Made by a program: the position numbers and the translations under genes. From a virus, in IMG/VR virus record IMGVR_UViG_3300024294_000597: 64,000 nucleotides of DNA. One strand, written 5' to 3'. Below are positions 23,731 to 61,569 of the stretch, piece by piece. The notes beneath the pieces were generated by a model. That model was not told the DNA's origin, made no database searches, and worked only from the letters and a program-made list of their open reading frames with translations. Within the stretch, counting starts at the first letter, position 1. The number at the start of each line of letters is the position of its first letter.

Positions 23731-23759
23731 ATATTAACACGATTCGCTGTATTGTCAAG
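23731..23759 (-). promoter_or_regulatory. Class G promoter CTTGACA-N6-CGAATCG-N3-TAATAT
   Basis: One of five copies with a fixed GANTC site and 16-bp spacer. Confidence 0.8.
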
Positions 23760-23940
23760 TTTTCAATACTTCATTAATCGCATTACGTTCTTTAATTAGT
23801 TGTTCCCTGGTTAAAGCAAACTTAGTGTAATAATCCATATCACTTGTAGTAATCTTATGATATTTACCATCCCTATTGCCTTTTACGTATTTAACTGGCA
23901 ATGACACATTTGATAGACTAGACAATGTAAGCACTCCCAA
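23755..23940 (-). CDS. Hypothetical protein
   Basis: 61-aa ORF; its stop TGA lies inside the -35 box of the next promoter. Confidence 0.45.
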   Translation of the reverse strand: MGVLTLSSLSNVSLPVKYVKGNRDGKYHKITTSDMDYYTKFALTREQLIKERNAINEVLKT

Positions 23941-24202
23941 TATGAGCAGAAGGTCTATTATGCTCTACCGGCTTAGTAGCATATTCATCTGAACCAGGAA
24001 CATATACACTTTCCACCATATATTCTACATCTTTTCCTAACATAGGGACTCTAACACCTCTGTCCAATATCTTTTGTATGATATCTTTAGCATGGTCACT
24101 ATCATAAGCAAACACTGATAATTGGTCAACTTCTCCAGCTGGAGCATCAACAGGTCTAATGTTTACTATATAGTCATTTTTTAGCGATTTTAGTGTTATC
24201 AT
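23918..24202 (-). CDS. Hypothetical protein
   Basis: 94 aa, AGAGAG ribosome site, own promoter. Confidence 0.6.
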   Translation of the reverse strand: MITLKSLKNDYIVNIRPVDAPAGEVDQLSVFAYDSDHAKDIIQKILDRGVRVPMLGKDVEYMVESVYVPGSDEYATKPVEHNRPSAHIGSAYIV

Positions 24203-24232
24203 TTGGTCTCTCTTTATTGTTAATATACTTAT

Positions 24233-24260
24233 ATTATACTACAGATTTACAACCTGTCAA
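24233..24260 (-). promoter_or_regulatory. sigma70-type promoter TTGACA-N16-TATAAT
   Basis: Perfect hexamers; spacer has AAATC rather than GAATC. Confidence 0.75.
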
Positions 24261-24283
24261 CCTTTTGAGAGATAAAAAACTAA

Positions 24284-25432
24284 TTATTTTATCAAAATAC
24301 TAGCATTTGTGCCACCAAAACCGAAAGAATTGCACAATACAGAGGTTATTTCTGCACGTTCTGACTTACTACGTATGTTTGGACTATAACCTTCTTCAAA
24401 CGCTTCTACGTTCACCGTAGGCGGTATAATAGCGTGTTTTAGAGACATAATAGACATAGCAAGTTCTACAGAACCAGCGGCGCCCATACAGTGTCCTAAC
24501 TGTGATTTGTTAGCAACTATGGGTACATCCTGTAATCCTAATCTATTGATAGCATCTAGTTCCGCATAATCTCCCATAGGTGTTGATGTTCCGTGTACAT
24601 TAATAAGACTAGGTGTTGTGTCTTTTAAAGCATCTTTCATGCATTCTTGTACAACCTTGCCGTCAGGATGAGGAGCAACAGTTTGATAGGCATCATTATT
24701 GATAGCATAACCATCAATCTCGCATATTGTATTGTCCGTCTTATGTTTACTCAATAAGAATAACGCACCGCCTTCACTTAATACTAATCCATCACGTTGA
24801 GTATCATAAGGTCTTGATGCTTTTTCTGGTGTATCATTATATTTGGTTGATAAGGCTCTGAGTTTTCCCATCTGTTTGAATGCATCTGGGTGTATAGTTT
24901 TATCTACAGAACCTGCTATTACATTATCTACCATACCCATTTCAATCATCATGGCCGCCCATATAACACTATAGATGCCTGTGCTACATGCAGTCAAGGT
25001 CATTGCACTAGCACCAGTTAAACCATATTTCATGTTTATATTATGTGCAATCATATCAGGACAATAGTGATAAATGTTATCAGCATTTTCCTTATTTGAC
25101 TGTAAAATTTCTAAGTACATAGAGAAGCCCGGAGATACAATAACACCTGTACGACTTTTATCTAATCCATCTAAGTTTATTTGACTTGCTAATGCTAAAG
25201 CCCATTGATTTGATTCTGGAAGTCTATCACGTTCTGACTCAGTTATGATAGGATATTCTTTTGCATCGAAATGAAACTCTCCAGCTACTTTGCTTCGTGT
25301 CCATCTACTTTCATTTGGGTCAAACTTTGTAATTGGCCCATATGCTACTTTGTTATTGGTAACTCCTTTCCATGTTTCCTGTAAATCACCGAAGGGCGTG
25401 AAACATGAAAGGTCGTTAATATATACGGTCAT
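24284..25432 (-). CDS. fabF: Beta-ketoacyl-ACP synthase II (FabF-like)
   Basis: TACST (Cys), VHGTST and GHCMGAAG (His, His), SRPYD, NSFGFGGTN. Confidence 0.9.
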   Translation of the reverse strand: MTVYINDLSCFTPFGDLQETWKGVTNNKVAYGPITKFDPNESRWTRSKVAGEFHFDAKEYPIITESERDRLPESNQWALALASQINLDGLDKSRTGVIVSPGFSMYLEILQSNKENADNIYHYCPDMIAHNINMKYGLTGASAMTLTACSTGIYSVIWAAMMIEMGMVDNVIAGSVDKTIHPDAFKQMGKLRALSTKYNDTPEKASRPYDTQRDGLVLSEGGALFLLSKHKTDNTICEIDGYAINNDAYQTVAPHPDGKVVQECMKDALKDTTPSLINVHGTSTPMGDYAELDAINRLGLQDVPIVANKSQLGHCMGAAGSVELAMSIMSLKHAIIPPTVNVEAFEEGYSPNIRSKSERAEITSVLCNSFGFGGTNASILIK

Positions 25433-26204
25433 ATTTTAAATCCGTTGCTATAATGTATTTGATGATTAATCCTGTTGGATCAAATTGATACCACTTCTCT
25501 TGTGTAGTGTAACTTAAACTGTTATTATGATGGTTATTATGCCAACCTTCACCGAATGTGATTAATGCTAAGAACCAGTTATTCTTACTATCATCACCTG
25601 TATCGTGTTCTGGCTTACCAAATATGTGTAGTAAATGTACAATACCAAATGTACCTACCCAAAATTGATACACGCCTGTAATACCTAATACATATCCCGG
25701 TAAGATTGGATCGATAAGAAATAGAATAATCATAGCAACTGTAATAATTTGAAAATAATAACGTTGCATAAATCTTACTTGCGGATCCATATATAAGTCT
25801 TTAAAAATTCTACGTTCAGGAGGAAAGTCTTCATAGAAACCCATTAAGTTTTCCCACCATGATTTTTCTCTTGGACTATGTATGTCCATACCTTCTACAT
25901 CGGAATATTTGTGATGTAATCTATGTCCACCTATCGTTGCTAATGGTTTACCTGGAAAGCCTAATGCGCCCCACCAGAGCAATAGTACCTGACGTTTCCT
26001 TCCAGTCTGATAACTTCTATGTGCCCAATATCTGTGCCAACCTGCAAATCCACCTATCATAGTTGTTATACAACCCCATGCAAACGAGTACCAAAAATAC
26101 TCTGGTGCGGTTATAATACTAAAGAGTAATACCAGGTGCAAAACAATCCATAGTGTTCGCATCTTCCAACCATAAGTATATTTTTCTAGTAGACTTTTAA
26201 TCAT
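25416..26204 (-). CDS. Membrane fatty acid desaturase (delta-9-like)
   Basis: His boxes HRYWAH, HRLHH, GEGWHNNHH; hydrophobic segments. Confidence 0.9.
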   Translation of the reverse strand: MIKSLLEKYTYGWKMRTLWIVLHLVLLFSIITAPEYFWYSFAWGCITTMIGGFAGWHRYWAHRSYQTGRKRQVLLLWWGALGFPGKPLATIGGHRLHHKYSDVEGMDIHSPREKSWWENLMGFYEDFPPERRIFKDLYMDPQVRFMQRYYFQIITVAMIILFLIDPILPGYVLGITGVYQFWVGTFGIVHLLHIFGKPEHDTGDDSKNNWFLALITFGEGWHNNHHNNSLSYTTQEKWYQFDPTGLIIKYIIATDLKYDRIY

Positions 26205-26811
26205 GTTTTTCTATCCTCTCTCCTGTTCTAAAGTTTCTCCAATTAAACTTCCAAACATCTTGCTTAATCCCATACAATGGGAAATCTTTATGTAATAGAG
26301 TTAGCTTATCTTCGTGTGGCCATGCCACATAAGCAAATCTCCATATCTTGTGCATCGTGCCACTTCTATCTTCACTGTGGTCTTGTGATGCTGTTGTAAC
26401 CACACAATCTGTGGCTCCTTGTTCATGTGCCCAATCTACCATAAAAGGAACTAATCTTGCAAATCCAAACTCATGATACATTCTTCTAGTATTCTGTCTA
26501 TCGTCTGCCATATTACGCCACTCAGGTAGTGTTGCCAATCTATAGTTTATCATATAACATGTATCATGTACATGTGGCAAGTAATGTGCACCTGCCATTG
26601 ATACTATCTTATCCTCGTGATAAACAAACCACCAGTTCTCTTGTGAACCCCATTTGCCAAACTTCAATGCTTTGAGACTAGCATTATTTAGTATACCTGC
26701 ATCACCACACTTATCGCAGAATTCTTCTAAGTCTGCTTTTAATGTGCTATCGTATTCTACTACTTTAAATTCGTAACCCTCTGCACCAGTGAATGTTTCT
26801 AATACTTTCAT
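26197..26811 (-). CDS. GNAT-fold acyltransferase-like protein
   Basis: IVSMAG strand and YRLATLPEWR (motif A-like), then FARLV...WAHEQG. Confidence 0.5.
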   Translation of the reverse strand: MKVLETFTGAEGYEFKVVEYDSTLKADLEEFCDKCGDAGILNNASLKALKFGKWGSQENWWFVYHEDKIVSMAGAHYLPHVHDTCYMINYRLATLPEWRNMADDRQNTRRMYHEFGFARLVPFMVDWAHEQGATDCVVTTASQDHSEDRSGTMHKIWRFAYVAWPHEDKLTLLHKDFPLYGIKQDVWKFNWRNFRTGERIEKHD

Positions 26812-27533
26812 TTCTTAGCCAATAACATTGGAATATAATATTTACCAGCCCAATCAGTTAGGTCATCACGTGACATATCAAGTCTTGCTGAATACTTGTG
26901 ATGTATGTCGTGACATCCCTCTCCCATCATCCAGATGTTTGAAAAGCCACCTAATCTAGCAGGCCCACCCTCTTTGTGTGCTGAGAAGTTTAACCAAGTA
27001 AGTGCTACCCACATGTGAGTAAAGTTAAATGCTTGCCATACAACTAACCACGGGCTGATTATTAAATGTATTAATGTGAATAATGCATATAGTTTCCAAT
27101 AGTTTCTATCAACATAAACTACATCACGTTTCTTTAATAGAAAACGTAAACTAATATAATCCTCTGGCGTCTTATAATGTCCTAACCACATTTTCCAGAA
27201 GCCTAGGTCAGCTGGATTATGCGTGTCCTTATCTGTATCTGAATTCTTATGATGATTTAAATGAGAGTACACATATTGTATTGGACTTCCATTTGCACTC
27301 ATAATAATACCATACAACATTGCATAGCGTCCTACGATATGAGGAACAAATTGGTCATGACATAACCATCGATGATATGCAATCTGTGACAATGCATTTG
27401 TTACACAACCATATAAGGTAAATGTTAATGCAAGTTGCCAAGATCCACCTGTAATAAAGTATGCCGGTATACCAATTAAGGTAATTGCTAACATGAAAAA
27501 TACTTTTACTGTTACTTTATTTTGATATGTCAT
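26808..27533 (-). CDS. Membrane fatty acid desaturase (second paralog)
   Basis: HRWLCH, HLNHH, GEGCHDIHH. Confidence 0.88.
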   Translation of the reverse strand: MTYQNKVTVKVFFMLAITLIGIPAYFITGGSWQLALTFTLYGCVTNALSQIAYHRWLCHDQFVPHIVGRYAMLYGIIMSANGSPIQYVYSHLNHHKNSDTDKDTHNPADLGFWKMWLGHYKTPEDYISLRFLLKKRDVVYVDRNYWKLYALFTLIHLIISPWLVVWQAFNFTHMWVALTWLNFSAHKEGGPARLGGFSNIWMMGEGCHDIHHKYSARLDMSRDDLTDWAGKYYIPMLLAKK

Positions 27534-29209: not shown

Positions 29210-29211
29210 TT

Positions 29212-30576
29212 TTACTCCACAAATTGTTCTTTGACTACGTGTCTCTGAACTTTGCCCATAGGATTTCTAGGTAGTGGATCTTTGGTAATAACAATTTCTT
29301 TAGGTAATTCATACTGAAATAATTTATCTTTAACAAAGTCCATCAACTCAAGACTATTTATCTCACTGTCCGCACTGACTACTGCAACAATTTCTTTTTC
29401 CCCTAGTCCTCTATCACGATATGTAACACAAACTTCGTTAACCTCTTCATGAGGTAATAACATATTTTCAATTTTAATAGGCGATACATTGAAACTGTTT
29501 ACTTTTATTAAATCTGTTTTACGTGATTTATAAAATAAAAGATTATGCTGAGTTTCTAATACATCACCAGTACACCAATAGCCATCATCATCTATAGGTG
29601 TTTCTTGATTCAGATATCCTTCTGTAACACAACTACCTTTAATCCAAGCAACACCATATCTATCTAATTTGAAATCATAGTTATCAGTAATATGAATTTG
29701 TAAAGGATGTGGATCATCTGGAGTTGCCAAGTGTGTAAACATTGGTACATGTGTTTCAGTACAGCCATACAAGTTTCTTAATGCAGGTGCACCTTTATCA
29801 AATAGTTCTTGTAGCATTTCTTCCGGACAAACTGTACTACCAAAACCTAACTCACGCCAATGAGACAAGTCTGCGTCTTTCCAACCACGTGTCTTAGACA
29901 GGGCCAACATCATTGCAGGAACCATAATACCTATCGTAGGTTTCATTTCGTTACAAATCTTAATAAACTTTCTGGGATTAAACATTTCACAAATTACTGT
30001 ACACCCTTTCATTAAACCAGGAAGTGTATAAAGATACAGACCACCAATAGTCCAAGGAGGAAGTTGTGAGAGTATTACATCATCAGATGTTAAAGTTTGA
30101 ATTAGAATGTTTTGTATTGAGCCTTGGACACATGCCATTCTAGTATGTGGGACTGCCTTAGGCTCTCCTGTAGTACCGCTAGTAAATATAACAGTATATA
30201 AATCATCTGCACCTTTGGCAAATACTAATCCTTTGTTATGAGGTTTTAGATTAGATGCATCATCCTCATTTAGAATAATATGATTTGGTTTACTGGCATT
30301 CTCAATACGAGATACCATACCTTCAGTTAGATTTGGCATAGTGGGCATGAATGTGACTCCTAACATATCACAAGCTAATACCATTCTTACATAATGATAT
30401 TCTTTTTCACTTGAAAATAGTAGACGCTCACCAGGCCTGATGGCAGTAGACAACGTAGCACCTAGTTTTTCAACACTGGTGATTAGTTCGTTGTATGTAT
30501 AACTCTTATCGTGGCAAATCAGGGCAGTCTTGCTACCGTGATTCTTTGCCTGTGCTTTTATTGTTTCCCAAATCAT
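29212..30576 (-). CDS. AMP-forming acyl-CoA/acyl-ACP ligase (ANL adenylation enzyme)
   Basis: FTSGTTGEPK, YGCTE, TGD, LPRNPMGKV. Confidence 0.9.
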   Translation of the reverse strand: MIWETIKAQAKNHGSKTALICHDKSYTYNELITSVEKLGATLSTAIRPGERLLFSSEKEYHYVRMVLACDMLGVTFMPTMPNLTEGMVSRIENASKPNHIILNEDDASNLKPHNKGLVFAKGADDLYTVIFTSGTTGEPKAVPHTRMACVQGSIQNILIQTLTSDDVILSQLPPWTIGGLYLYTLPGLMKGCTVICEMFNPRKFIKICNEMKPTIGIMVPAMMLALSKTRGWKDADLSHWRELGFGSTVCPEEMLQELFDKGAPALRNLYGCTETHVPMFTHLATPDDPHPLQIHITDNYDFKLDRYGVAWIKGSCVTEGYLNQETPIDDDGYWCTGDVLETQHNLLFYKSRKTDLIKVNSFNVSPIKIENMLLPHEEVNEVCVTYRDRGLGEKEIVAVVSADSEINSLELMDFVKDKLFQYELPKEIVITKDPLPRNPMGKVQRHVVKEQFVE

Positions 30577-30581
30577 ATCTA

Positions 30582-30610
30582 ATTATAACAAAAAAAGGGA
30601 GAGAAGTCAA
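30582..30610 (-). promoter_or_regulatory. sigma70-type promoter TTGACT-N17-TATAAT, probably giving a leaderless transcript
   Basis: The -10 box ends 5 nt before ATG 30576. Confidence 0.75.
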
Positions 30611-30624
30611 CACCTCTCTCCCTT
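30590..30624 (-). terminator. Rho-independent terminator overlapping the promoter
   Basis: AAGGGAGAGA-loop-TCTCTCCCTT followed by a T run on the minus strand. Confidence 0.75.
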
Positions 30625-30647
30625 AAAACGCAATAAAGTGTCTGCTC

Positions 30648-31775
30648 TTATGCGTTATGAGCCTCGATAATTAGCTTACCGTATTTCTTAAAGAACTCCT
30701 CGATACAAGGAACCTTCCTAGGCTCAAGTGGAAGTTTGTAAACTTTTAGTGCAGTACGACCACCTAGAACAATCATTTCAGTTTCAAAGTTATCCATCAT
30801 GAACCTGAAAAAGTTATCAGCCATTTTGTACAACTCATCCATTTTGCCTTTGTTTTTCTCTGCATGTTCTTTCAACTCATAACATAGTGAAGCAGTTAGT
30901 GAGAACATAGCTGAGATTTCCTTAGCTTCCCTAGACACCGTTTTTACCTTACCATTTAAGATATCAGTTGGATTAGGAAGTTTACCAGAAATTGCTCGGT
31001 GAGCCATAAACTTAGTAGCAACACCATCACCAACAGTACCAGCAATTAAGTCATGCAGTTTACTATCATCGATATTTTCATCTTTCATTGGCATCAACTG
31101 TGATGCAAAAGTCCATGAACGAGGAGTTGCGAAAGCCCGTGATGCAGTTCGTGGGTCAAAGTTAAACAAGTCCATCTTATTAGATGTTAAGTAACCAACA
31201 ACATCAGAATGGATTTTGTTTTCAAGAGCCCAAGTCTGCCAATCTTCAAAGTCAACACCCATTTCTAAGTGAACGAAACGGTTAGCAAGTGGGCTTGGCA
31301 TACGATAAGCAACACCTCTATCACTCTCACGGTTACCAGCGGCAACAATAAGAACATTATCAGGTAGAGTGTAATTACCTAGACGCCTGTTAAGAATAAG
31401 TTGATAAGCCGCCGCTTGTACTGATTGCGGTGCTTGGTTCATTTCATCTAAAAACAATACAATGTTTTCAAACTGGTCAGCAAGTTCCTGACTAGGCAAA
31501 TCAGACGGTGTCGCCCAATCCATAGTATTTGTTTTCTCATTATAGTATGGGATACCTCGTAAATCAGTAGGTTCCATAAGAGCAAGTCGTAAGTCAATCA
31601 TATAACCTGAACGCTCTTGTGTGATTGAATCAACAATCTCAGATTTACCTACTCCCGGAGGACCCCAAATAAAGACGGGTCGTTGACGATTAAAAGCATA
31701 ATTAATTTCAGCTTTAATATCACTCGGACGTACAATTCGTACATCCATATCATTCATTGAAACTTGTGCAGACAT
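30648..31775 (-). CDS. MoxR-type AAA+ ATPase
   Basis: GPPGVGKS Walker A, LFLDE Walker B, AAGN, LANRF, TPRSW; likely start 31775. Confidence 0.9.
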   Translation of the reverse strand: MSAQVSMNDMDVRIVRPSDIKAEINYAFNRQRPVFIWGPPGVGKSEIVDSITQERSGYMIDLRLALMEPTDLRGIPYYNEKTNTMDWATPSDLPSQELADQFENIVLFLDEMNQAPQSVQAAAYQLILNRRLGNYTLPDNVLIVAAGNRESDRGVAYRMPSPLANRFVHLEMGVDFEDWQTWALENKIHSDVVGYLTSNKMDLFNFDPRTASRAFATPRSWTFASQLMPMKDENIDDSKLHDLIAGTVGDGVATKFMAHRAISGKLPNPTDILNGKVKTVSREAKEISAMFSLTASLCYELKEHAEKNKGKMDELYKMADNFFRFMMDNFETEMIVLGGRTALKVYKLPLEPRKVPCIEEFFKKYGKLIIEAHNA

Positions 31776-31809
31776 ATTTTCATTTCCTTTGTTTTGTATC
31801 ATTAACTAT

Positions 31810-31838
31810 ATAATAGCACGATTCGTGATTCTGTCAAG
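31810..31838 (-). promoter_or_regulatory. Class G promoter CTTGACA-GAATCA-CGAATCG-TGC-TATTAT (two GANTC sites)
   Basis: Directly readable. Confidence 0.8.
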
Positions 31839-31866
31839 TTTTTTGACCTAAATAAATGAAGTTTTT

Positions 31867-32256
31867 TTAAATTATATTGGAAATGCCATATATGGTGTGT
31901 TTTTGCTCAACCCAGTCTTGTAATCCAAGTAAGGATATCTCTGCGGCTATGCTTTCTTCAAACACTCGTAATCTATGGTTAGTAAGGATATATGGACTGT
32001 TAAGGTATCGGTCTAAGACGAGAATCATCTTACCCGTTTGGTCAATCTTAAGATTGATACCAACTGAATTAGTATTTTTGATTACGTACTCTTTGAAATG
32101 TGACTTTAGTATACCAGCACCAAATGATGTTAATCTAAAGTTCTTATCATTTTCAGAAGAACTAATGAAAATATCATTTGTACGAAACTCTTTACGGCCT
32201 GCTTTTCGACCTTTAGTGTTATCATTCAGATACTTTATTAGTTCATCTTTTAACAT
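31867..32256 (-). CDS. Hypothetical protein
   Basis: 129-aa ORF co-oriented with neighbours. Confidence 0.6.
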   Translation of the reverse strand: MLKDELIKYLNDNTKGRKAGRKEFRTNDIFISSSENDKNFRLTSFGAGILKSHFKEYVIKNTNSVGINLKIDQTGKMILVLDRYLNSPYILTNHRLRVFEESIAAEISLLGLQDWVEQKHTIYGISNII

Positions 32257-32263
32257 TTAACAT

Positions 32264-32554
32264 TTAGTCTAACTCAAGTTTTTCGCCCTTAGTCAAGACA
32301 AAAACTTCAAAATCATCGCAACGAAATAAACTGTTTAGTCTCTGTGCCAGATTGATAGCATGTCCTGGATTAGAGAACGATACTTTTTTATATTTTGGTC
32401 CTGGGAAATTAACTAATGAGTTCAAGCTACGTAGATTTATTGCTACTCCTTTGTGGAATACCGCATACACGGCATCTGCTTTTAGGACTTGCTCACTACG
32501 ATATGTTTTGTTATCCGTATGCTCAAGTAGAATTGTAGGTTTAGGTCTTGCCAT
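32264..32554 (-). CDS. Conserved-looking phage hypothetical protein (MARPKP...)
   Basis: AAGGA ribosome site; two late-promoter motifs upstream. Confidence 0.7.
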   Translation of the reverse strand: MARPKPTILLEHTDNKTYRSEQVLKADAVYAVFHKGVAINLRSLNSLVNFPGPKYKKVSFSNPGHAINLAQRLNSLFRCDDFEVFVLTKGEKLELD

Positions 32555-34678: not shown

Positions 34679-35650
34679 TTATTTTTCGTTGATTTGACGT
34701 TCAAATTCTCTTAAACGTTTGAATACACTCATTAACTCAATAAGTGTTGGCCATGCTTTAAATAGATATTGAAGTGAGCCTTCTACTCTACCAAATGCAC
34801 GAATAATCTGTTGCATTACACCAAGTGTTACAACGCCTGCTACAATAGCCGGTGCTAAGAACACATAAGCACTTAGTACGTTTGCTTGTAAGTATGTAAT
34901 ACGTCCTACATTAAAATACAAATAACGCAAGTAAGATTTAAAGTGAATACTACGAACGCCATCAAACAATTCGTTAATAGTCTTTGGTCTCACAGTTTCA
35001 TCATCTTCTGCAATAACTAATATCTTTCGATATGCGGCTTCTTTCTTTTGTAAGTCATATTCAACTCCTACTAATCGTAGTAACCAACCTAGTCCAATTA
35101 AGAATAGTGTACCACCTACTGACCAAACAATAGCACCTGTAATCAATCCATATTGCCAATCTCCAAAGAAGAAGATAGGAATACCTACTGATAAACCAAA
35201 TAGAATAGGAACGAACTGAACTAGAACCATAATCGATTCAATAAAACTTGTACCTAGTCCTTCCATAATACGACTAAACTTAATAGTATCTTCTTGTACC
35301 CTTTGTGCGGCACCTTCAATAGTTCTTGCTTTATCATATACTGAATGATACCATTCAACCATTGCCGTACGCCATCTAAACAAATAGTGTGCTGTAAAGT
35401 AACTTACTAGCACTGCAATAGCAACATATATCATTGCTAGATAGATAAACGTTCCTAAGCTGGCCCAATATTCACCTATAGTGATTGCATTAGGTGTTGC
35501 TAAAGCCGTTTGAATCATATCATAAAACTGACCAAACCATTCGTTAATCTTAACATCAATCTCAACTTGTATCCAGAGTGATGATAAGATTAATGCTGAC
35601 CCTAACCAGGCCCATAAGGACCATTTCTTTTCTGTAAAAAATCTAAACAT
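34679..35650 (-). CDS. sbmA: SbmA/BacA-family peptide transporter
   Basis: FRWRTAM, IEGAAQRVQEDT, QKKEAAYRK, ELMSVFKRLREFE; multiple TM helices. Confidence 0.88.
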   Translation of the reverse strand: MFRFFTEKKWSLWAWLGSALILSSLWIQVEIDVKINEWFGQFYDMIQTALATPNAITIGEYWASLGTFIYLAMIYVAIAVLVSYFTAHYLFRWRTAMVEWYHSVYDKARTIEGAAQRVQEDTIKFSRIMEGLGTSFIESIMVLVQFVPILFGLSVGIPIFFFGDWQYGLITGAIVWSVGGTLFLIGLGWLLRLVGVEYDLQKKEAAYRKILVIAEDDETVRPKTINELFDGVRSIHFKSYLRYLYFNVGRITYLQANVLSAYVFLAPAIVAGVVTLGVMQQIIRAFGRVEGSLQYLFKAWPTLIELMSVFKRLREFERQINEK

Positions 35651-47554: not shown

Positions 47555-50350
47555 TCAAAAATCAAACAGATTGGTGAATTGCTCAGACGCATCAGCATCA
47601 CTTAAGTCCCACTTAAGAACACCAATAAGATTATCTAGTTTCTTATCAATAATTGTTGATTCCATTAAATCATCATCAAAAGGAAGTTCTTGAAACCATT
47701 CAGGAATACGCTTTTCATCAATTGGAATTGCAACACTTGTCATTTTTAAAGCGTTTGGTTTAAGTTTACATACAATAGTCTTCATACCATCGGTAATTTC
47801 AACAGAATATTTGTCACCATGTAATTCACGTAGTGTATTCCAATTCAAAGCCGCACTAACATGTCCCGGCAAGTGTACTTTATCTTTTTTGCTATTATTT
47901 CCCTCTAGTTTGAAATCTTTGCCTTGTTGCTTTGCAATCTTTTTTACTTTATTTCTATACATAGTAAGATTATTAACACGTTTAGGAGTACCTTTCTCCC
48001 AACCAGGCTTTGCTCTGAATTCTTTCTTAAATATCTTAACCATATCGATTACGTTTTGTTCTGTACCGTCTGTTAGAATTGTAACAAGAACATCACTCAA
48101 AAAGTTCTGCATATAATCAGGAGTATCACTACGTTTTAAATCGAGACCCATAGCTTTTACTTTACCAGGTTTACCATCTACGTCTTTTCTTACGCCTTCA
48201 TCATCAAAGATAAGCATTGCGTATCGTTTCTTCTTAATGAAGATACCCATAGTTGCACAGTTCTCTCGACCCGCCGCAATAATCTCACCTTGTTTGCGTG
48301 GAGCATTAAAGAAGTCTTTCATAAAGTCAGGGAAACTTGCATTGACTTGATTTGCAATTTCATCGTACAGTTCAATAACTTTTTCTTTAGTCCATTCAAT
48401 CTTACCTGCATCAATGTCTTCCTTGTAAACAGGATACATAGAATAATAGATACTATCTGTATCACCATAGATAATGGACTCGCCTTTGTAATCATAAGTA
48501 CCAGCGATTACTTCATTAGTTTTAGCACCCATGTGTCTTGTAATACAACGACCAGATAGAGTTGTACTTTGACCAATACGTTTGTCATAAAATCTACAAC
48601 CAGCGTTCAAAATCGCACCATACAAACTGTTCAAGTTAATCTTCTTAACTAGCTGTCGTTTATCCCAAAATGTAATAGCTTCTTTGTCGCCATCTTCAAT
48701 AGCTTTTTTCTTGTTTGCTTGTAGTATCTTACGTTCAGCATACCAACGTTCTAATAAACTAGGAATGATACCTTGTACGTCTTGTTTTAGAATTGTACCA
48801 TTGGCAGTAATTGCCCATTGCAAGTCACTTTGAAATACTAAGTTGTGTATCTCTGCGCCTGTCATTTCATTTCGAACATCTTTATTATCTTCTAATACAA
48901 GATTAATCTTTTCTGTTTTATCTTTTTCATTAACAAGTCTAAATTCTTCTGCACTAAACGTATCTTCCCAAGCCTGCGCCGCACCAAAGCCTTTACCGCC
49001 ACCTCGTCTACCATTAGCAATTCTATCACCAATCATTTTTTCTGTTAGAGTTGGTTCGAGTTGTGCAACAATAGTTTCTGGAGACATATTTAATGCACGA
49101 ATAATAGATGGATAGAGTGAGTTAATATCAATACCTGATACCCATCGTTGAATTCCAGTCTTTGGATCTGCAACAAAGGCGCCCGCGGCTTTCTGTTTCT
49201 CTGCCGCTTCTAACTCTGCGTCAGTGGGTTCAATATCTTCTTCTGTCCAGTCACGCTTCTTTCTATCTGGAACAACCATACCTCGTCTATGTGCTTCATT
49301 AATGATTGCTTGTTCTGTAACTGCAACTGCACCCATAGTTGTTTTGATATTAACTGTATTGTCGTGTGCAATTTCATTTGCTAAATCAATAAATTGTAGC
49401 TTCTTATCCATTTCACCAAGAAGTGCAACGTCCTGTCTGTTGTATTCAACAAACTTATAGAAGTCTCTGTTATACAATTGGTCTAGTGTGCCTTCATATG
49501 CAATTTTCTTTTCACCAAGTTCGTATTCGCCGATAGCATCAAGTGAGTACGAATGCATTTCGTGGTATGTATACTTACGATAAAGTTCAAGATAGTCTAG
49601 GTGAATTCGCCCTGACAAATCATATGTAATTTGTTCTCTGCCATATTTGACTACTTTTCTTTCATGCGGAAGCAAGTCCCATAAACACAGTTTGCGTGTA
49701 TGTGATTTACTCATCATGCGAGTAATACGTCTAACTGTATATGGAATATCAAAACCTTCTGAGTTCCAACCTGATAAAACATCTGCATCATCAATCAATG
49801 CAATGAAATCATTTAACATATCTACTTCATCAAGATATAAAAATGTATCATCAAATTGATTACAAATGCGTTCTGCTTCTTCAAGTCCTTCTCCCTCTTG
49901 CATATGTTTAGGAGGGATAGCGAATGTTACAAGTTTATCTAACCACTGTAGATAAACAGTGATTGCAGTGATAGGCATAAAGGGATCCTCTGGTGGAGCA
50001 AATCCCTTATCTGCATCAAAGTCTACTTCGATATCAAAAAAAGCAGTATGTAGCTTTGGAGAATCTACACCGTTGTAGTTCTCACTTAAGCATCTTACTT
50101 CTGGTTTGATATCGCTTTCGTATAGTGACTTACCTGCATTTATTCTTCGTTCTTTGTGTAGGTCTTTGAGCCGTTTACACTTTACTTCACGGACTTTATC
50201 TCCGTGAATACTTAAGTGTTGTCCTCGAGGATCTTTCACATAGAAAGTTCGCCATGCAGGGAAATCGTTATAGACACGTTTTCCATCGACACGTTCTATT
50301 ACTTGAACAATGTCTTTATCTCTATTGTAATAAGCGTCTACATAACTCAT
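47555..50350 (-). CDS. polB: DNA polymerase family B
   Basis: FDIE, GWNSEGFD, DINSLYPS, KINLNSLYG, YGDTDS, KKRY; no intein. Confidence 0.97.
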   Translation of the reverse strand: MSYVDAYYNRDKDIVQVIERVDGKRVYNDFPAWRTFYVKDPRGQHLSIHGDKVREVKCKRLKDLHKERRINAGKSLYESDIKPEVRCLSENYNGVDSPKLHTAFFDIEVDFDADKGFAPPEDPFMPITAITVYLQWLDKLVTFAIPPKHMQEGEGLEEAERICNQFDDTFLYLDEVDMLNDFIALIDDADVLSGWNSEGFDIPYTVRRITRMMSKSHTRKLCLWDLLPHERKVVKYGREQITYDLSGRIHLDYLELYRKYTYHEMHSYSLDAIGEYELGEKKIAYEGTLDQLYNRDFYKFVEYNRQDVALLGEMDKKLQFIDLANEIAHDNTVNIKTTMGAVAVTEQAIINEAHRRGMVVPDRKKRDWTEEDIEPTDAELEAAEKQKAAGAFVADPKTGIQRWVSGIDINSLYPSIIRALNMSPETIVAQLEPTLTEKMIGDRIANGRRGGGKGFGAAQAWEDTFSAEEFRLVNEKDKTEKINLVLEDNKDVRNEMTGAEIHNLVFQSDLQWAITANGTILKQDVQGIIPSLLERWYAERKILQANKKKAIEDGDKEAITFWDKRQLVKKINLNSLYGAILNAGCRFYDKRIGQSTTLSGRCITRHMGAKTNEVIAGTYDYKGESIIYGDTDSIYYSMYPVYKEDIDAGKIEWTKEKVIELYDEIANQVNASFPDFMKDFFNAPRKQGEIIAAGRENCATMGIFIKKKRYAMLIFDDEGVRKDVDGKPGKVKAMGLDLKRSDTPDYMQNFLSDVLVTILTDGTEQNVIDMVKIFKKEFRAKPGWEKGTPKRVNNLTMYRNKVKKIAKQQGKDFKLEGNNSKKDKVHLPGHVSAALNWNTLRELHGDKYSVEITDGMKTIVCKLKPNALKMTSVAIPIDEKRIPEWFQELPFDDDLMESTIIDKKLDNLIGVLKWDLSDADASEQFTNLFDF

Positions 50351-52726: not shown

Positions 52727-52750
52727 ATTACTATTTATCAAATTAATTAA

Positions 52751-57000: not shown

Positions 57001-57813
57001 GCCGATATCTCTGCCATTGCTTATCAAATCGGCATATTTAACTGTTTGTGCTTCTGCACTAACACCTGCAAGTTTATCTCTGTCTATGCCTTTGCGTACT
57101 TTTCTATTACCGTCTTCTGGTTTACTTACATCAGTAAGTTCAACAACTAGTTTTGCAATCTGAGGACCAAATTCTCTTGTTACATCTGCTGGTGTAACAC
57201 TTGTATCTTCTACTGTATCATGCAACAAAGCGGCACACTGTTGATTCACAGAACCACCTGCCTGTTTAACGATATTTCTCACTTCATCTAAGTGTACATA
57301 GTATGGTTCACCAGTGTACTTTCTCTTGTGGTCTTTGTGAGCCTCTTGAGCAAATTGTTCTGCCTTTGCTATGATATCCATTGATTCGTCCTCTGTGTAG
57401 ATATCTTTGAAGTATACACTAGGAAACTTTAATGTCAAGGATAAAAGTTCATGAACATCAACATTTGCACGTAAAATATTAATATCTCTACCTGTATTCA
57501 AAGCGGCCAACCACCGATGATGTCCATCTATAATCCAACTGTCACTACTTGCTAGTAGAGGTTTTGGGTTCTGGCCGTCATATTTTTTGTTCTTTGTAAG
57601 TTGTCTTTCAACACCTTGGTCTGAAAATTCTTTTTGTATTGGTTTTAAATCTTTTGCACTTACGACTTGTGAAGTTAGAGTTACGCCGTTCTTTTTAAGA
57701 TAAGATTTATATTCGTCATAGTCTGTAGATTTCACTTGAGGCATTTTGTCCCTTGTGATACCCATAGTATCTTCTGGTTTAGGCTTCTCTATTTTGAATT
57801 CAGCTAGGCGCAT
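54070..57813 (-). CDS. Multi-enzyme protein: ParB-like, RelA/SpoT-type HD hydrolase, ParB-like, GNAT, CCA-adding tRNA nucleotidyltransferase, unknown, HAD 5'(3')-nucleotidase
   Basis: IIDGHHRW; HxxxxRK..GEPY..H and ALLHDTVED...KYADLISN; LLDGNHRL; RNAGQG...FYKRFGF; VGGAVRD, DIDFAT, DAKRRDLTYNAM, EDYLRILRYFRF; YVDMDGVLVDF, LIDD. Confidence 0.88.
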   Translation of the reverse strand: MRLAEFKIEKPKPEDTMGITRDKMPQVKSTDYDEYKSYLKKNGVTLTSQVVSAKDLKPIQKEFSDQGVERQLTKNKKYDGQNPKPLLASSDSWIIDGHHRWLAALNTGRDINILRANVDVHELLSLTLKFPSVYFKDIYTEDESMDIIAKAEQFAQEAHKDHKRKYTGEPYYVHLDEVRNIVKQAGGSVNQQCAALLHDTVEDTSVTPADVTREFGPQIAKLVVELTDVSKPEDGNRKVRKGIDRDKLAGVSAEAQTVKYADLISNGRDIGKNDPKFAKVYHAEKADLLRVMKNGKASLRKEAINMLPDELKAIANSQVEEEVKLANSVISSQQMLTKLSKEMQGTHTGAMDPNSDWSKFVLSHKGFKLKDVQVDKIPTAVKSDGMSQANVEKYKKADTSQFPPMVIGNDGYLLDGNHRLQAYKAQGIKTVKAYVGEEVEVSLHGDAKKGYVLSKIEVSGDERNAGQGTKEMQNIVDRMDREGAIIALTPDDAFGGNKNRLIKFYKRFGFVPNKGRNKDFRFRETMIRYPQTNERVNEALNTMLSALREEALNVKPIITQAIRKLDKVFKKNQYEVRIVGGAVRDIALGKEPKDIDFATDATPDEMIAMLDKEGIRHIPTGIEHGTITAVIDGEDFEITTLRADTNTDGRHADVEFVRSWEEDAKRRDLTYNAMSMDIDGTVHDYNGGMDDLQDKVSRFVGDPEERIKEDYLRILRYFRFQSKLDSPKWDDVTLNAIKDNADGMTGLSVERIWQEMSKLLMGSSAKEALEWMNKTGVSSKIGLEGINPAKLGEPTGPIIALARMLDSSGIARDWKMSNYDREMFDFLIKHKGENINPKQAQDMIINGASQDHLLAWANMHGKNDVYDAVHGFEQPDFPINGKDLLARGYVAGPNLGKMIADLKDEWMKSNYKLSKEDLLNKVPVKETIVLEAVGKFMTGHNVKFAGKKYEQIEVEVTGVDNDKRLYHISILHPKELFGKQVSISAKFMHRGPWVKTDTKKVANWAESKYDNWMNKKSLDEDFERLLEDNTPDVYVDMDGVLVDFFNEWARIMNVKSYRDIPKEQIGKALKKIVNTPNFWEDLPTLAGHKELLNTIKATKGKYKILSSPLANDPNVDPGKREWVRKHLNFFKPEQVIIDHNKSKYATKQDGTPNLLIDDFGKNVKGWQSAGGIAIKHHTTTTANTVQAIKKVFSRKDVKEAAGVGRVVPGINTTVDVGPNEITKQAKKFGNDVDKDGKPKKLLRTKKK

Positions 57814-57824
57814 TTAAAACAATC

Positions 57825-58964
57825 CTAATTTTTAATATTTCTATCTAAGCTGGCTAAATTTGCGTTTGCATTTTTGCCAAAGTTACTCTTGTTTAATTGC
57901 ATTTTATTTACAATTTTCTTGAAGCCTTCTTTAGTTCTTAGATATTGTTTAATGATTTCTTTTTGTTCTGGTCTTGCAATATCATGATACGCCATTGTAA
58001 ATCTTTTCGCAAGTTCAGGTGTAACTTTAATTTCTTCATTATCTTTAAATTTAATTGGAAAAGGCATATTATCTGCACGTGCGGCTAAGTTATCTAATAC
58101 TCTCAAAGGATCAGATTGTTTAACAGGCTGACCTTTATTATATTCTACGATTAGATAAAAATCATCTTCGTTAGATTCGTGTATCTTATTATATACGTCT
58201 GCAAGTTCTCTTGCATTTATTCCATGCATGGTACGAGAAATATCAAATGCGTATCCACTTACACTTTGTCTGTTGCCTTTAGAAGTCACAAGCCTATGTA
58301 ATGCATCTAGGGCCGCCTTCATATATCTTTCTGGTACATTTAATATAGCTTTATCAGGATGACTAAAATCTTCTGGTAAGGCATAATCTGCAATATTCTG
58401 TCCTAGTCTTTTTGTTTTTTGTTGTAAACTACGTAACTTCTTAATACCTTTACCAGTTGTAATTGCAACCTTAAACATACCTTTAAGTACATCAACTGTT
58501 GTCTTTGCCAACACAGCCATAATAATTAATTCTGCTAACGGAGGGACTGAACCAAAATCTTCACTAACATCTACAGTGGACTCTACTGGAAATTCTTTGT
58601 TTGATGTTTTGAAGTTCTTTTTACGCATGACAGTTTTTGCAACTAAGTCTAGTTCTTCGTTGTCTCTGTCCCATTTCAATACAAAAGGAATATTGATATC
58701 ACTTTCTAAGTCTTTCATCACTGCCTCAGCATCAGGACCCATCTGTGCAATTGGTTTACCCCAACGCTTGTATTCTTTTTTAAACAAATTTACCAACTCA
58801 GGCATAGTGATTTGTTGACCATTACGGTCATCGTTTGCTCTATCGATAAAGTGTCTAGTGAATTCTACATCGATGTTGAGACTAGAAAACAAATTATCTA
58901 ATGCTTTTTCTAAAGCATTTAATTGAGTGTTAGTTATTGGTTGTTCTACTTCATCTAATCTCAT
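57825..58964 (-). CDS. Modular hypothetical protein, probable internal head protein
   Basis: MRLDEVE start; FTRHFIDR...KTVMRK domain (RelE/BECR-like look); C-terminal domain shared with 50697..52496. Confidence 0.55.
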   Translation of the reverse strand: MRLDEVEQPITNTQLNALEKALDNLFSSLNIDVEFTRHFIDRANDDRNGQQITMPELVNLFKKEYKRWGKPIAQMGPDAEAVMKDLESDINIPFVLKWDRDNEELDLVAKTVMRKKNFKTSNKEFPVESTVDVSEDFGSVPPLAELIIMAVLAKTTVDVLKGMFKVAITTGKGIKKLRSLQQKTKRLGQNIADYALPEDFSHPDKAILNVPERYMKAALDALHRLVTSKGNRQSVSGYAFDISRTMHGINARELADVYNKIHESNEDDFYLIVEYNKGQPVKQSDPLRVLDNLAARADNMPFPIKFKDNEEIKVTPELAKRFTMAYHDIARPEQKEIIKQYLRTKEGFKKIVNKMQLNKSNFGKNANANLASLDRNIKN

Positions 58965-58965
58965 T

Positions 58966-60087
58966 TTATTTTCCCTTTTGTGACTTCAAAACTTGTATTT
59001 CTTTTTGCAATACTTCTATTGCTTTAGTAAGTCTTGCCAATTCTTTTTCTTGTTTATAGTCAGCTTTGTCGCCGTCTCTTTCATTCTTTTCTACGTCTGC
59101 CAATAAAGCCGATAACACATTGTCTGCCTGCGGATATTTAGTTTTCAACTGAACCAATGCTCTTGCAGTTTTAGGGTCAAACCCTTTTAACAAATCTTCT
59201 GATTTTTCTTTTTCTTTAACAGGAGTTGGTTCATTCCTACGTTGATTAACTTTGGAAGGATCCATACCTAATTCAGATGCTTTACGATATTTTGCCATTG
59301 TTTTGAGTGCGTATGCTTTCTTTCTGGCTCGTCTTGCCATTGCAGGCGATAATGCTTCACCCATATCCTGCATTAGTTGTGCTTCCATAAGAGACTCATA
59401 CAACGAATGCTCTTCCCAATTTTCATTTGTAATTCCTTTTTGTAATTTATTTTGAAATAATTGCATTACATCTTTTGGAATATTAGGATTGCCATATAAA
59501 TCTTGTAAAATCTGTTCTAGTGTTGACTCGTCTGCCTTCGCAATCATGTCACGAATTTGGGTAGCACTATTAATTGCCTGTCCTCTTATTTCGAACTTAA
59601 ACGTAGGTACTGTAGTAATATATGAATGGTCACGCAATGGTTTAGCATTCTCAATCCCAGGCCATTTTTGCATATGAGCAGGTTGTCCTTTTTTAGCACC
59701 TCTAGTTAATAGAGCCATACCAGTGTCTGGGAAGTTAAATCTAGGGTCTTCTGCCATATCTTTCTCTGATACTGCATAAACTATTACGGTCTTATCTGGG
59801 TCAAATCTGTCTGTAATCTCTGTAGCAACATAAGGAACTTTACATTGAACGATAGAATTAGGGTCTACACCAGCTAATTGCATCATCTTTTTCTTCTCTT
59901 GGAATGTAAAGGGAGACTTATGATTATCCGTTTTATCAGAAGATGCAATAAATACTTGTGCACCTTTATATTGTTGTTTTAGATACTTGAATACTTTCCC
60001 ATGTCCAATGTGAAATGGGTGAAATCTTCCTGGATATATTACAACAAGATTGCTGTTTTCGTTCTCAAATAAGTCGTATAATCTCAT
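58966..60087 (-). CDS. HIGH-motif nucleotidyltransferase (cytidylyltransferase/NMNAT-like)
   Basis: YPGRFHPFHIGH, SPFTFQEK, INSATQIR; MRLYDLFE start. Confidence 0.8.
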   Translation of the reverse strand: MRLYDLFENENSNLVVIYPGRFHPFHIGHGKVFKYLKQQYKGAQVFIASSDKTDNHKSPFTFQEKKKMMQLAGVDPNSIVQCKVPYVATEITDRFDPDKTVIVYAVSEKDMAEDPRFNFPDTGMALLTRGAKKGQPAHMQKWPGIENAKPLRDHSYITTVPTFKFEIRGQAINSATQIRDMIAKADESTLEQILQDLYGNPNIPKDVMQLFQNKLQKGITNENWEEHSLYESLMEAQLMQDMGEALSPAMARRARKKAYALKTMAKYRKASELGMDPSKVNQRRNEPTPVKEKEKSEDLLKGFDPKTARALVQLKTKYPQADNVLSALLADVEKNERDGDKADYKQEKELARLTKAIEVLQKEIQVLKSQKGK

Positions 60088-60117
60088 GTTTTTCTACCTA
60101 TAATTAACTGCTATGTG

Positions 60118-60124
60118 TATTTAT
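60118..60124 (-). promoter_or_regulatory. Putative late promoter ATAAATA heading the M-[RK]-L gene block
   Basis: Intergenic, just downstream of a terminator. Confidence 0.55.
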
Positions 60125-60133
60125 CTTTATTAT

Positions 60134-60160
60134 AAAAAAAGACCCACTCAGAAGTGGGCC
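60134..60160 (-). terminator. Rho-independent terminator of the early small-gene block
   Basis: GGCCCACT-TCTG-AGTGGGTC-TTTTTTT. Confidence 0.8.
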
Positions 60161-60189
60161 AGTTAGTTCACAATATGAACAAGGAGACT

Positions 60190-60288
60190 TTAAAAGAAAA
60201 AGTATATATTCAGTGAAATCATAACACCTGTTAGTGCTAGACCAAAGATAGTGCTTTTATTGAATTCTAGGCTATTTGGATGTCTCAT
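60190..60288 (-). CDS. Unlisted 32-aa single-pass membrane peptide
   Basis: GAGG ribosome site; MRHPNSLEFNKSTIFGLALTGVMISLNIYFFF*. Confidence 0.6.
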   Translation of the reverse strand: MRHPNSLEFNKSTIFGLALTGVMISLNIYFFF

Positions 60289-60296
60289 GTTACCTC

Positions 60297-60494
60297 TCAA
60301 TCTAAATCGCATTGCCAATACTTACCATCATACCAAGCACGAAGCCCGCCCAATGGATAATCCGTATGTTCAAAGAATATGTAAGGACGGCCCTTTGCAT
60401 CAATTTTCTGTTCTATGATACTGGCTTCTTCTAAAGGTATTAGACGTTCAGCACCAGTATCTTCGTAAACTGCACTATTAAAAATGCGTATCAT
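60297..60494 (-). CDS. Small early protein, paralog 1
   Basis: MIRIFNSA...PYIFFEHTDYPLG...WQCDLD. Confidence 0.7.
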   Translation of the reverse strand: MIRIFNSAVYEDTGAERLIPLEEASIIEQKIDAKGRPYIFFEHTDYPLGGLRAWYDGKYWQCDLD

Positions 60495-60495
60495 C

Positions 60496-60735
60496 TTACG
60501 CCGCCTCTCCGAAAAGTTTGCTCATGTTTGAAAATACTACATTATAAGCATTTGCTTCATACTCATAATTATCCCAGAAGTTATCATCATCATTGCCTGA
60601 TGCACAATGCTCTTCCCAAACACGGTTCATTGCGTTCATTCCTTCTAGTGCATCGCCACGACCAAAACTTTCGATTGTCTTCCAAGCATCTTCAAAACTT
60701 GGTGTTGCTTCATAAAAACTAGGGATTCTAAACAT
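60496..60735 (-). CDS. Small early hypothetical protein
   Basis: 79 aa behind a class G promoter. Confidence 0.7.
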   Translation of the reverse strand: MFRIPSFYEATPSFEDAWKTIESFGRGDALEGMNAMNRVWEEHCASGNDDDNFWDNYEYEANAYNVVFSNMSKLFGEAA

Positions 60736-60768
60736 ATTATTCTCTCTCTTTTGATTAACTATACTTAT

Positions 60769-60797
60769 AGTATACAGCGATTCGCTATTTTGTCAAG
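60769..60797 (-). promoter_or_regulatory. Class G promoter CTTGACA-N6-CGAATCG-N3-TATACT
   Basis: Directly readable. Confidence 0.8.
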
Positions 60798-60800
60798 TTT

Positions 60801-60989
60801 TTAGTCTAAATCACAAGACCAATGTTCGCCATTATATTCTGCCTTTAACGAACCCATGGGGTAATCGCTATGCTCAAATAAGATATAAGGAGAACTATAT
60901 ACTGGACAAATCTTTTGTGTCACTATGTTTACTTCATCTAGTGACAACCAACGTTCTCCGGGGATAGCTGAATTAAAAATACGAATCAT
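60801..60989 (-). CDS. Small early protein, paralog 2
   Basis: MIRIFNSA...PYILFEHSDYPMG...WSCDLD. Confidence 0.7.
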   Translation of the reverse strand: MIRIFNSAIPGERWLSLDEVNIVTQKICPVYSSPYILFEHSDYPMGSLKAEYNGEHWSCDLD

Positions 60990-61015
60990 TTGAACCTCTC
61001 TCTGATTACTTAATT

Positions 61016-61044
61016 AATATAGCACGATTCGTTAATTTGTCAAG
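61016..61044 (-). promoter_or_regulatory. Class G promoter CTTGACA-N6-CGAATCG-N3-TATATT
   Basis: Directly readable. Confidence 0.8.
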
Positions 61045-61045
61045 T

Positions 61046-61516
61046 TTAAACTAGACTTGTACGGGTATCGCCTTCAATTTTAAGGACGCATTCGCCTGTA
61101 CTAAGGTTATCGACATTACCAACAAACTTACCAATAAGATGTTCATATTCTGTTCCTTCCTGAAATCCACCAACTATATAGCCACGTTTCATATACCAAT
61201 CACCTTTGTCATTCTTACGAACAACATTATCAAGGTACAAAGTATCCCAACCTTTTGGGTCGTACTCTTTTTGTGATTGTACGTATTCTGATTCAAAGTT
61301 ATCTTCAACTTGATAACAATCAAAGAAGTTTTCTTCGTATGCTTCGTTTGAAGATGTAACTAAATCTATAACGGAAGAAGCCTCATCATAATTGCTGGCT
61401 TCAACAACATAGGTGCTACCACCTTTGTTCTTCCAATAAGAAGTAACACCATCCCAATCTGAATCATGGGCGGCATAGTTTTCACGGATAGCAGTTTCGA
61501 TAACAAATTTGTTCAT
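61046..61516 (-). CDS. Early hypothetical protein
   Basis: Start MNKF after AAGGAG; RENYAAH..W...YWKNKGG. Confidence 0.7.
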   Translation of the reverse strand: MNKFVIETAIRENYAAHDSDWDGVTSYWKNKGGSTYVVEASNYDEASSVIDLVTSSNEAYEENFFDCYQVEDNFESEYVQSQKEYDPKGWDTLYLDNVVRKNDKGDWYMKRGYIVGGFQEGTEYEHLIGKFVGNVDNLSTGECVLKIEGDTRTSLV

Positions 61517-61540
61517 AGCTTTCTCCTTCATTATGTATAT

Positions 61541-61569
61541 AATATATCATGATTCGGAGATATGTCAAG
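61541..61569 (-). promoter_or_regulatory. Class G promoter CTTGACA-N6-CGAATCA-N3-TATATT
   Basis: Directly readable; -35 contains the upstream stop codon. Confidence 0.8.

Follow-up and report, generated by a model that had tools for sequence, protein, structure and literature searches.

A phage promoter class with a GANTC word at a fixed spacer position and its likeness to the GcrA box of Caulobacter

Control of transcription by the sigma70 cofactor GcrA and the GANTC methylase CcrM is, to our knowledge, limited to chromosomal cell-cycle genes of alphaproteobacteria. Here we describe a class of sigma70-type promoters, found in a 64,000-nucleotide stretch of viral DNA (IMG/VR record IMGVR_UViG_3300024294_000597; the whole stretch is called the window below), in which a GANTC word occupies a fixed place in the spacer between the -35 and -10 hexamers. 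These promoters probably carry a GcrA-type box that engages the GcrA-loaded sigma70 holoenzyme of an alphaproteobacterial host, a reading to which we assign a probability slightly better than even (about 0.55). A full-text literature search returned no report of a phage promoter class built around a GcrA box.

The closest described systems are the GcrA- and CcrM-dependent sigma70 promoters of Caulobacter crescentus, for example PcsM (PMC4647560, PMC5887438, PMC9976885). GcrA prefers the sequence TGATTCG and, more broadly, YGAKTCK (Haakonsen 2015, PMC4647560), and the boxes of GcrA-activated promoters either form a narrow peak at about -20 or are spread from +2 to +30 (PMC4647560). Upstream boxes have been placed at -20 ± 1 and -30 ± 2, and in the scaffold used for cryo-electron microscopy (cryo-EM) of the Caulobacter GcrA-RNA polymerase complex the non-template strand reads TTGACA-N6-CG(m6A)ATC-N5-TATAAT, m6A being the methylated adenine (Wu 2023, PMC9976885). 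A second precedent is provided by the early promoter/stem-loop (PeSL) cassettes of T4-like phages (Arbiol 2010, PMC2839356; Comeau 2014, PMC4122927).

The box promoters and the Caulobacter GcrA box

A search of the window for TTGACA-N6-CGAATC returned five exact matches, all on the minus strand, against a chance expectation of about 0.01 for this exact word in 64 kb on both strands (from base composition). The first T of the -35 hexamer lies at 23758, 31837, 60796, 61043 and 61568, and all five sites fit CTTGACA-N6-CGAATC[GA]-N3-TAnnnT exactly, each with a spacer of 16 bp. An earlier sequence-only reading of this DNA had proposed five promoters with a fixed GANTC and a 16-bp spacer at these places, and every one of them was confirmed to the base:

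23731-23759, minus strand: GANTC-box promoter with -35 CTTGACA, 16-bp spacer, box CGAATCG, GANTC at 23741-23745, TGn and -10 TAATAT; 5' of the DUF2201 metallopeptidase/VWA-like gene
31810-31838, minus strand: GANTC-box promoter with GANTC at 31820-31824 and a second GAATC at 31827-31831 within the N6; 5' of the MoxR-like AAA+ ATPase gene
60769-60797, minus strand: GANTC-box promoter with GANTC at 60779-60783 and -10 TATACT; 5' of a 79-aa gene without known function
61016-61044, minus strand: GANTC-box promoter with GANTC at 61026-61030 and -10 TATATT; 5' of a 62-aa gene
61541-61569, minus strand: GANTC-box promoter with box CGAATCA and GANTC at 61551-61555; 5' of a gene of about 156 aa; the orthologous promoter in the complete relative G001 lies at 48160

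An A-tract lies 5' of all five, and a Shine-Dalgarno sequence and ATG follow 25-45 nt 3'. A TGn motif precedes the -10 hexamer in four of the five, and at 60796 no base separates the TG from the -10. A generic promoter scanner gave its highest rank, 11/12, to the three sites near 61 kb. The 71-kb contig G000, which overlaps the window, contains eight exact sites, the three additional ones being located at the contig start outside the window, and all eight lie on the coding strand just 5' of genes.

The geometry of the phage box closely follows that of the cryo-EM scaffold. It lies on the same strand and is separated from the -35 hexamer by the same six-base gap; the 16-bp spacers of the phage promoters put the box one base closer to the -10 than in the scaffold, and the 17-bp variants described below reproduce the scaffold geometry exactly. 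With the predicted transcription start taken 7 nt past the -10, GANTC falls at -21 to -17 (16-bp spacer) or -22 to -18 (17-bp spacer), and is thus centred within the -20 ± 1 that characterizes upstream-type GcrA boxes.

The flanks agree with the published preference as well. Read on the opposite strand, the boxes of the window are CGATTCG or TGATTCG, the latter being the published optimum, as anticipated by the sequence-only reading, which had noted that all five match YGAKTCG on the plus strand. Variant boxes found in relatives also conform, AGAATC(G/A) reading (C/T)GATTCT on the opposite strand and the flipped forms CGATTCG and TGATTCG fitting directly; YGAKTCK is matched on one strand by 8/8 of the contig sites and by 26 of the 28 sites recovered in the word-free scan described below. 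The preferred flank switches with the flip of the centre, and the commonest flank is C (G on the other strand). A C or A occupies the 5' flank in 24 of 25 GAATC sites, compared with 61% of box-less promoters; the 3' purine carries no weight because box-less members of the class share it, so that only the 5' flank is informative.

The likeness to Caulobacter GcrA promoters hence comprises a spacer GANTC centred at -19/-20, the orientation of the box, the six-base gap, the YGAKTCK flanks and the sigma70-type promoter itself. The phage promoters differ from them in being phage-borne rather than chromosomal, and in joining the box to a consensus -35, TGn, -10 and A-tract; the phage promoters carry these consensus elements natively, whereas those of the cryo-EM scaffold were engineered in. 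They differ further in that the spacer is mostly 16 bp rather than 17 bp and that the centre of the box is A or T only.

The sequence-only reading had also drawn a line between 16-bp promoters with GANTC and 17-bp promoters without it. This holds for all the promoters named there, including six comparison promoters (-35 first T at 21768, 30610, 37471, 41253, 46275 and 50693) with 17-bp spacers and no GANTC. Exceptions are an intergenic TTGACA-16-TATAAT promoter at 24260, which has a 16-bp spacer without GANTC, and 17-bp spacers in one box promoter of the contig (C1:849) and in two of G001, where the distance from the box to the -35 is kept. The spacer rule is a tendency and not absolute.

Two further features of these promoter regions deserve mention. 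The -10 hexamer of most box promoters forms an inverted repeat with the adjoining 3' bases (TATACT-ATA-AGTATA, ATTATGTA/TACATAAT); the repeat is seen at window positions 23715-23740 and 60750-60775 and at the same place in other box promoters, including those of G001, and its 3' arm co-varies with the -10 variant. It may represent a dyad operator over the start site, a 5' hairpin or chance palindromes in A+T-rich DNA. A second promoter family, with a 17-bp spacer, consists of TTGACTTC, a pyrimidine-rich TCCCT stretch, TTTGT and TATAAT; its two nearly identical copies at window positions 21730-21775 and 30572-30617 (minus strand) are kept in G001 at 90543.

Conservation of the spacer word and the promoter cassettes

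The window has a G+C content of 35.8% and is identical over positions 1-63235 to the IMG/VR record G000 (71,008 bp; judged 19% complete). Its last 765 bases (63236-64000) lie outside that record and have no match there, and the window must derive from an assembly of this phage that extends further. The family B DNA polymerase encoded here most resembles the enzymes of Sinorhizobium phage Phosso (48%) and Agrobacterium phage Atu_ph07 (45%), followed by jumbo phages of the Rak2/GAP32 type. The phage is an uncultured marine jumbo phage of the T4 superfamily. A near-identity search of cultured phages with two window stretches gave no match, and a distant search with one box promoter gave chance matches only. 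A complete relative is available in G001 (342,607 bp, with terminal repeats), which is syntenic with the window at 80-90% nucleotide identity.

In G001 the promoter class, defined as AAAAC-TTGACA-N16-TAnnnT, carries at spacer positions 7-12 the words CGAATC (ten promoters), AGAATC (six), CGATTC (two) and TGATTC (one), and three members are without GANTC. The G001 orthologues of the window promoters 23758 and 31837 (at 88555 and 80842, respectively) both read AGAATC, the flank having changed and GAATC having been kept. Among 15 further relatives, GAWTC stands exactly at the box position in 41 of 61 promoters matching a pattern that leaves the word unspecified, and is shifted by one base in 2; at seemingly orthologous sites of the relatives G004 and G005 the centre is A in one and T in the other. 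Across the relatives the N6 adjoining the box varies freely while GAWTC stays constant, and the centre is always A or T, never G or C.

The same placement recurs beyond these relatives. A motif scan of IMG/VR returned more than 100 stretches, mostly on contigs of 33-41% G+C; most of them comprise the full promoter including the -10, which was absent from the query, and often two to four promoters stand in tandem. A second scan of IMG/VR, with a pattern free of the word, yielded 131 unique promoters. Spacer position 8 is the first base of GANTC in 28 of these, position 7 in 3 and position 1 in 4, and the word begins nowhere else in the spacer; chance would give about 0.4 at any single position. 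The claim of a positionally fixed GANTC is thus borne out by G001, by the 15 relatives and by the word-free scan. By these comparisons, what is conserved is an interrupted palindrome of 5 bp together with its preferred flanks, held by selection and not part of a copied stretch; because the N6 is free and only the palindrome with its flanks is kept, the pattern is the one that a small GANTC reader would leave, and not that of a copied block or a long operator.

The genes served by the box promoters, and the structure that ends the largest group of them, are as follows:

22375-23688, minus strand: gene for a DUF2201_N metallopeptidase with a VWA-like DUF2201 domain (PF13203, E 3e-36; PF09967, E 3e-15)
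30648-31802, minus strand: gene for a MoxR-like AAA+ ATPase (AAA_5), behind box promoter 31837
60297-61516, minus strand: array of four small genes without family matches (61046-61516, 60801-60989, 60496-60735 and 60297-60494)
60141-60160, minus strand: intrinsic-terminator-like hairpin of 8 pairs followed by a T run, which ends the small-gene array

Each of the first three genes of the array has its own GANTC-box promoter. The gene layout suggests that the genes behind box promoters are early genes. At several sites (23758, 61043 and 61568) the homology of the window to G001 begins or ends only a few bases from the promoter, just 5' of the -35, and, because the breakpoints lie at the promoters, promoter and gene appear to move as a unit, that is, as a mobile cassette. 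In this respect the phage promoters resemble PeSLs, with which they share near-consensus sigma70 promoters repeated before small genes without known function, an A+T-rich stretch on the 5' side, a conserved unit that takes in the Shine-Dalgarno sequence and the start codon, and homology breakpoints between related phages at the promoters; a repeated near-consensus promoter with Shine-Dalgarno sequence and ATG at the breakpoints is what is found here. The spacers of published PeSLs, unlike those of the phage promoters, are 17 bp long and contain no conserved word. At the window sites no stem-loop 5' of the promoter was evident; in a scan of 59900-62000 the only good terminator was that at 60141-60160, 3' of the array, with none directly 5' of the three promoters there.

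This cassette character raises the alternative that GANTC is a passenger or a structural feature, either because PeSL-type recombination keeps the copies alike or because the spacer tunes twist or bending for the polymerase, with no reader involved. Breakpoints a few bases 5' of the -35 and the joint movement of promoter and gene are as in PeSLs (PMC2839356, PMC4122927), and the promoters are alike well past the box, from the A-tract to about +15. Yet the six adjoining bases vary freely around a constant GAWTC, the box itself changes only in its flank or by a flip of the centre that keeps the palindrome, spacer GANTC occurs across unrelated contigs only at positions 7 and 8 and in a few cases at 1, and the published PeSL consensus sequences lack a conserved spacer word. 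We consider this explanation quite unlikely.

As to the remaining gene content, two members of the small-gene array, 60297-60494 (65 aa) and 60801-60989 (62 aa), are paralogous, both beginning with MIRIFNSA. Metabolic genes in the window include a radical-SAM array and genes for tryptophan halogenase, ketoacyl synthase, MetK, ThyA, FolE, IscU and a CCA-adding enzyme fusion. A scan for tRNA genes in the window found none. A search for AsiA gave no match, a result that says nothing since control genomes were equally silent.

Host clues and the possible source of GcrA and CcrM

The best clue to the host is an unusual auxiliary gene of the phage:

34679-35650, minus strand: gene for an SbmA/BacA-like inner-membrane peptide transporter (Pfam E 9e-140)

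The encoded protein is 90-92% identical to proteins of ten single-cell genomes of uncultured Alphaproteobacteria and of one Rhodobacterales bin, and 80-84% identical to those of SAR11 and SAR116. In a maximum-likelihood tree the two phage copies are sister to the same single-cell clade (support 100/92). At the DNA level the gene is about 80% identical to its counterpart in assemblies of this candidate lineage that span 1.3-2.3 Mb; it is the sole DNA-level match, and because no other gene matches within assemblies of that size, the gene is chromosomal in the single-cell genomes. Sampled loci of the candidate lineage have a G+C content of 35-37%, compared with 35.8% for the phage and about 29-31% for sampled SAR11 loci. 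The phage MetK is also nearest to the candidate lineage (58-59%, compared with 55% for SAR11 and 52-54% for others). In a wide scan MetK was uninformative as a host clue, its top matches probably being mis-binned contigs in archaeal bins. The streamlined roseobacter lineage HTCC2255/NAC11-7, which we take to be similar in genome size and G+C content, serves as a lead only.

Both partners of the circuit are present in such bacteria. Among five partial genomes of the candidate lineage, four contain GcrA and four contain a methylase of CcrM size; the methylase aligns over its full length with Caulobacter CcrM (PDB 6PBD, 511 bits), and the DNA-binding domain of GcrA (a close match to 5YIU) as well as its sigma-binding domain align with the Caulobacter structures. 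In SAR11, GcrA was found in 39 of 41 genomes and a CcrM-size methylase in 40 of 41. The candidate host, as judged from gene comparisons, is the marine alphaproteobacterial lineage of the single-cell genomes that carry GcrA and CcrM. The alphaproteobacterial host predicted by the sequence-only reading thus gains independent backing from the SbmA/BacA-like tree, MetK and G+C content, the lineage itself still being a candidate.

The phages themselves offer no such circuit, and the proposal that GcrA and CcrM might be phage-encoded found no support. The Pfam model for GcrA has no match in G001-G005, Atu_ph07 or Phosso, and no homologue of GcrA or CcrM was found in G000-G005 with Pfam models or with custom hidden Markov models built from five marine low-G+C GcrA and five CcrM sequences; in all open frames of G001 and the contig, the custom models gave best E values of 0.39 and 2. 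One sub-threshold match to the PF01555 methylase family maps to the radical-SAM gene region and was rejected. With no gcrA or ccrM in the phage, only a host circuit is available.

A GcrA DNA-binding domain alone, scoring 29 bits and thus above the Pfam cut-off, was detected inside a 339-aa open reading frame in the genome of a gammaproteobacterium, Neptuniibacter (G018:C22:4780-4920). The domain is thus not confined to Alphaproteobacteria and can stand in a different kind of protein, which speaks for the alternative that another small sequence-specific protein, either an early or virion-borne phage regulator or a host factor, reads the box as a methylation-independent on/off switch. Most phage genes are without known function, the link of GcrA to the phage sites is drawn from sequence, and the box is missing from about one-fifth to one-half of otherwise identical promoters, as expected of a separately regulated subclass. 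Against such a reader, a search of the complete relative G001 yielded no GcrA-like domain, the 5-7 conserved base pairs and the flippable centre are more in keeping with a monomeric GANTC reader than with a dimeric helix-turn-helix operator, and the exact GcrA register, orientation and flanks would have to be coincidence. On balance we regard another reader as unlikely.

Host GcrA as the proposed reader, and its implications

If host GcrA does act on these promoters, the mechanism can be outlined as follows. The phage promoters are strong, of sigma70 type and built as self-contained promoter-gene cassettes of the kind that T4-like phages use for early genes, each combining a UP-like A-tract, a consensus -35, TGn and the -10 with a GcrA-type spacer box (C/A)GAWTC(G/A). 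GcrA of the host would ride on domain 2 of sigma70, with its small monomeric DNA-binding domain docked in the major groove on the spacer face directed away from polymerase, and would read GANTC, best once methylated by CcrM. This contact would give the phage promoters one extra link to the host holoenzyme and so aid competition at the start of infection. We infer GcrA as the reader, methylation of the sites and the early class of the genes.

Several observations weigh against this proposal. The centre of the phage box, A or T only, is narrower than the published tolerance of GcrA, and the box promoters, being already near-consensus, may do without an activator. None of 185,579 bacterial and archaeal species genomes contains the promoter pattern, and no infected or mis-binned host assembly was found thereby; a search of 41 SAR11 genomes and of nine from the candidate lineage did not find the same promoter build either, the sole conserved match being intragenic. 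In the cultured SAR11 myophage HTVC008M not a single TTGAC-N8-GANTC occurs. The class is likewise missing from Atu_ph07 and Phosso, whose hosts bear GcrA; five of the six pattern matches in Atu_ph07 are intragenic and the sixth lacks a -10. Since these three phages are without the class, the box is a trait of an uncultured aquatic clade and not of all phages of GcrA-bearing hosts. A second host clue also points elsewhere:

62974-63381, minus strand: gene for IscU (NifU_N), 83-84% identical to gamma- and betaproteobacterial IscU (Pseudomonas, Methylophilales, Oceanospirillaceae)

A search of three low-G+C alphaproteobacterial candidates (G263, G149 and G290) yielded no IscU, and the origin of the phage gene conflicts with the host clue from the SbmA/BacA-like gene. 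Since IscU is strongly conserved and those three genomes yielded none, it is contrary evidence and not a verdict.

Word statistics belong to the same reckoning. The window contains 98 GANTC words against about 200 expected, and the ratio of observed to expected occurrences is 0.56 in the contig and 0.66 in G001, which makes GANTC the most or second most depleted interrupted palindrome of its kind; it is likewise the most depleted in a 400-kb sample of one SAR11 genome (ratio 0.70). Within phage non-coding DNA, GANTC is about twofold enriched relative to control words. Of the enrichment over background for which the sequence-only reading had proposed to look, the non-coding part is present, but overall the word is depleted. 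Depletion together with non-coding enrichment is weak evidence for a CcrM/GcrA setting, with which both appear compatible. GATC (49 against 210 expected) and AGCT (87 against 210) are also strongly depleted, and GCWGC is wholly absent from the window (0 against about 42) and from G001 (0 against about 202); since these words are depleted equally or more, the depletion of GANTC may be mere restriction avoidance. GAGCTC, too, is nearly absent from the phage. The avoidance signature of GCWGC, GATC and AGCT could help to identify the restriction systems of the host.

Restriction pressure, to which the strong avoidance of GANTC and several other short palindromes points, also bears on the explanation that methylation is sensed without GcrA, in that m6A at -20/-18 alters polymerase binding directly or that the box is a retained target of a host GANTC restriction-modification system. 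Dam-site promoters that respond to methylation without a dedicated reader are known, and Dam (GATC)-sensitive promoters of phages and transposons include P1 cre, Mu mom and IS10 pIN. The phage promoters resemble the Dam-sensitive ones in that a short methylatable palindrome in promoter DNA would couple expression to methylation or replication state; they differ in site and methylase, and in that Dam sites lie in the -10/-35 hexamers or in operators instead of having a constant spacer location that a sigma cofactor reads. A genome that keeps about 20 cleavable sites in this one place would pay dearly for them unless they serve another function, and on that face the polymerase has no base-specific contacts from -22 to -17 (PMC9976885). 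Such direct sensing is very unlikely in our estimation. Two other phage contigs, L275 (IMGVR_UViG_3300031659_000314) and L223, have promoters of similar overall design that carry AGATCT or GGATCT, which contain the Dam site GATC, at approximately the same spacer position, hinting that other lineages place a different methylation site there.

Should host GcrA prove to be the reader, it is tempting, if rather doubtful, to extend the proposal to epigenetic timing. Packaged DNA methylated by CcrM would allow the box promoters to fire on entry, and unmethylated progeny DNA would lose the boost, so that the box could contribute to an early-to-late switch and provide a read-out of the host cell cycle; the box would also become a sequence-only marker of alphaproteobacterial hosts among uncultured aquatic phages. 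Gating by methylation and sensing of the cell cycle are wholly conjectural parts of this scheme. If true, the box promoters would represent a case of a virus exploiting a sigma-factor cofactor, and possibly the methylation clock of its host. They would also supply a ready set of strong, compact natural GcrA-box promoters for biochemistry, and a simple means of assigning abundant uncultured phages of marine and freshwater environments to alphaproteobacterial hosts.

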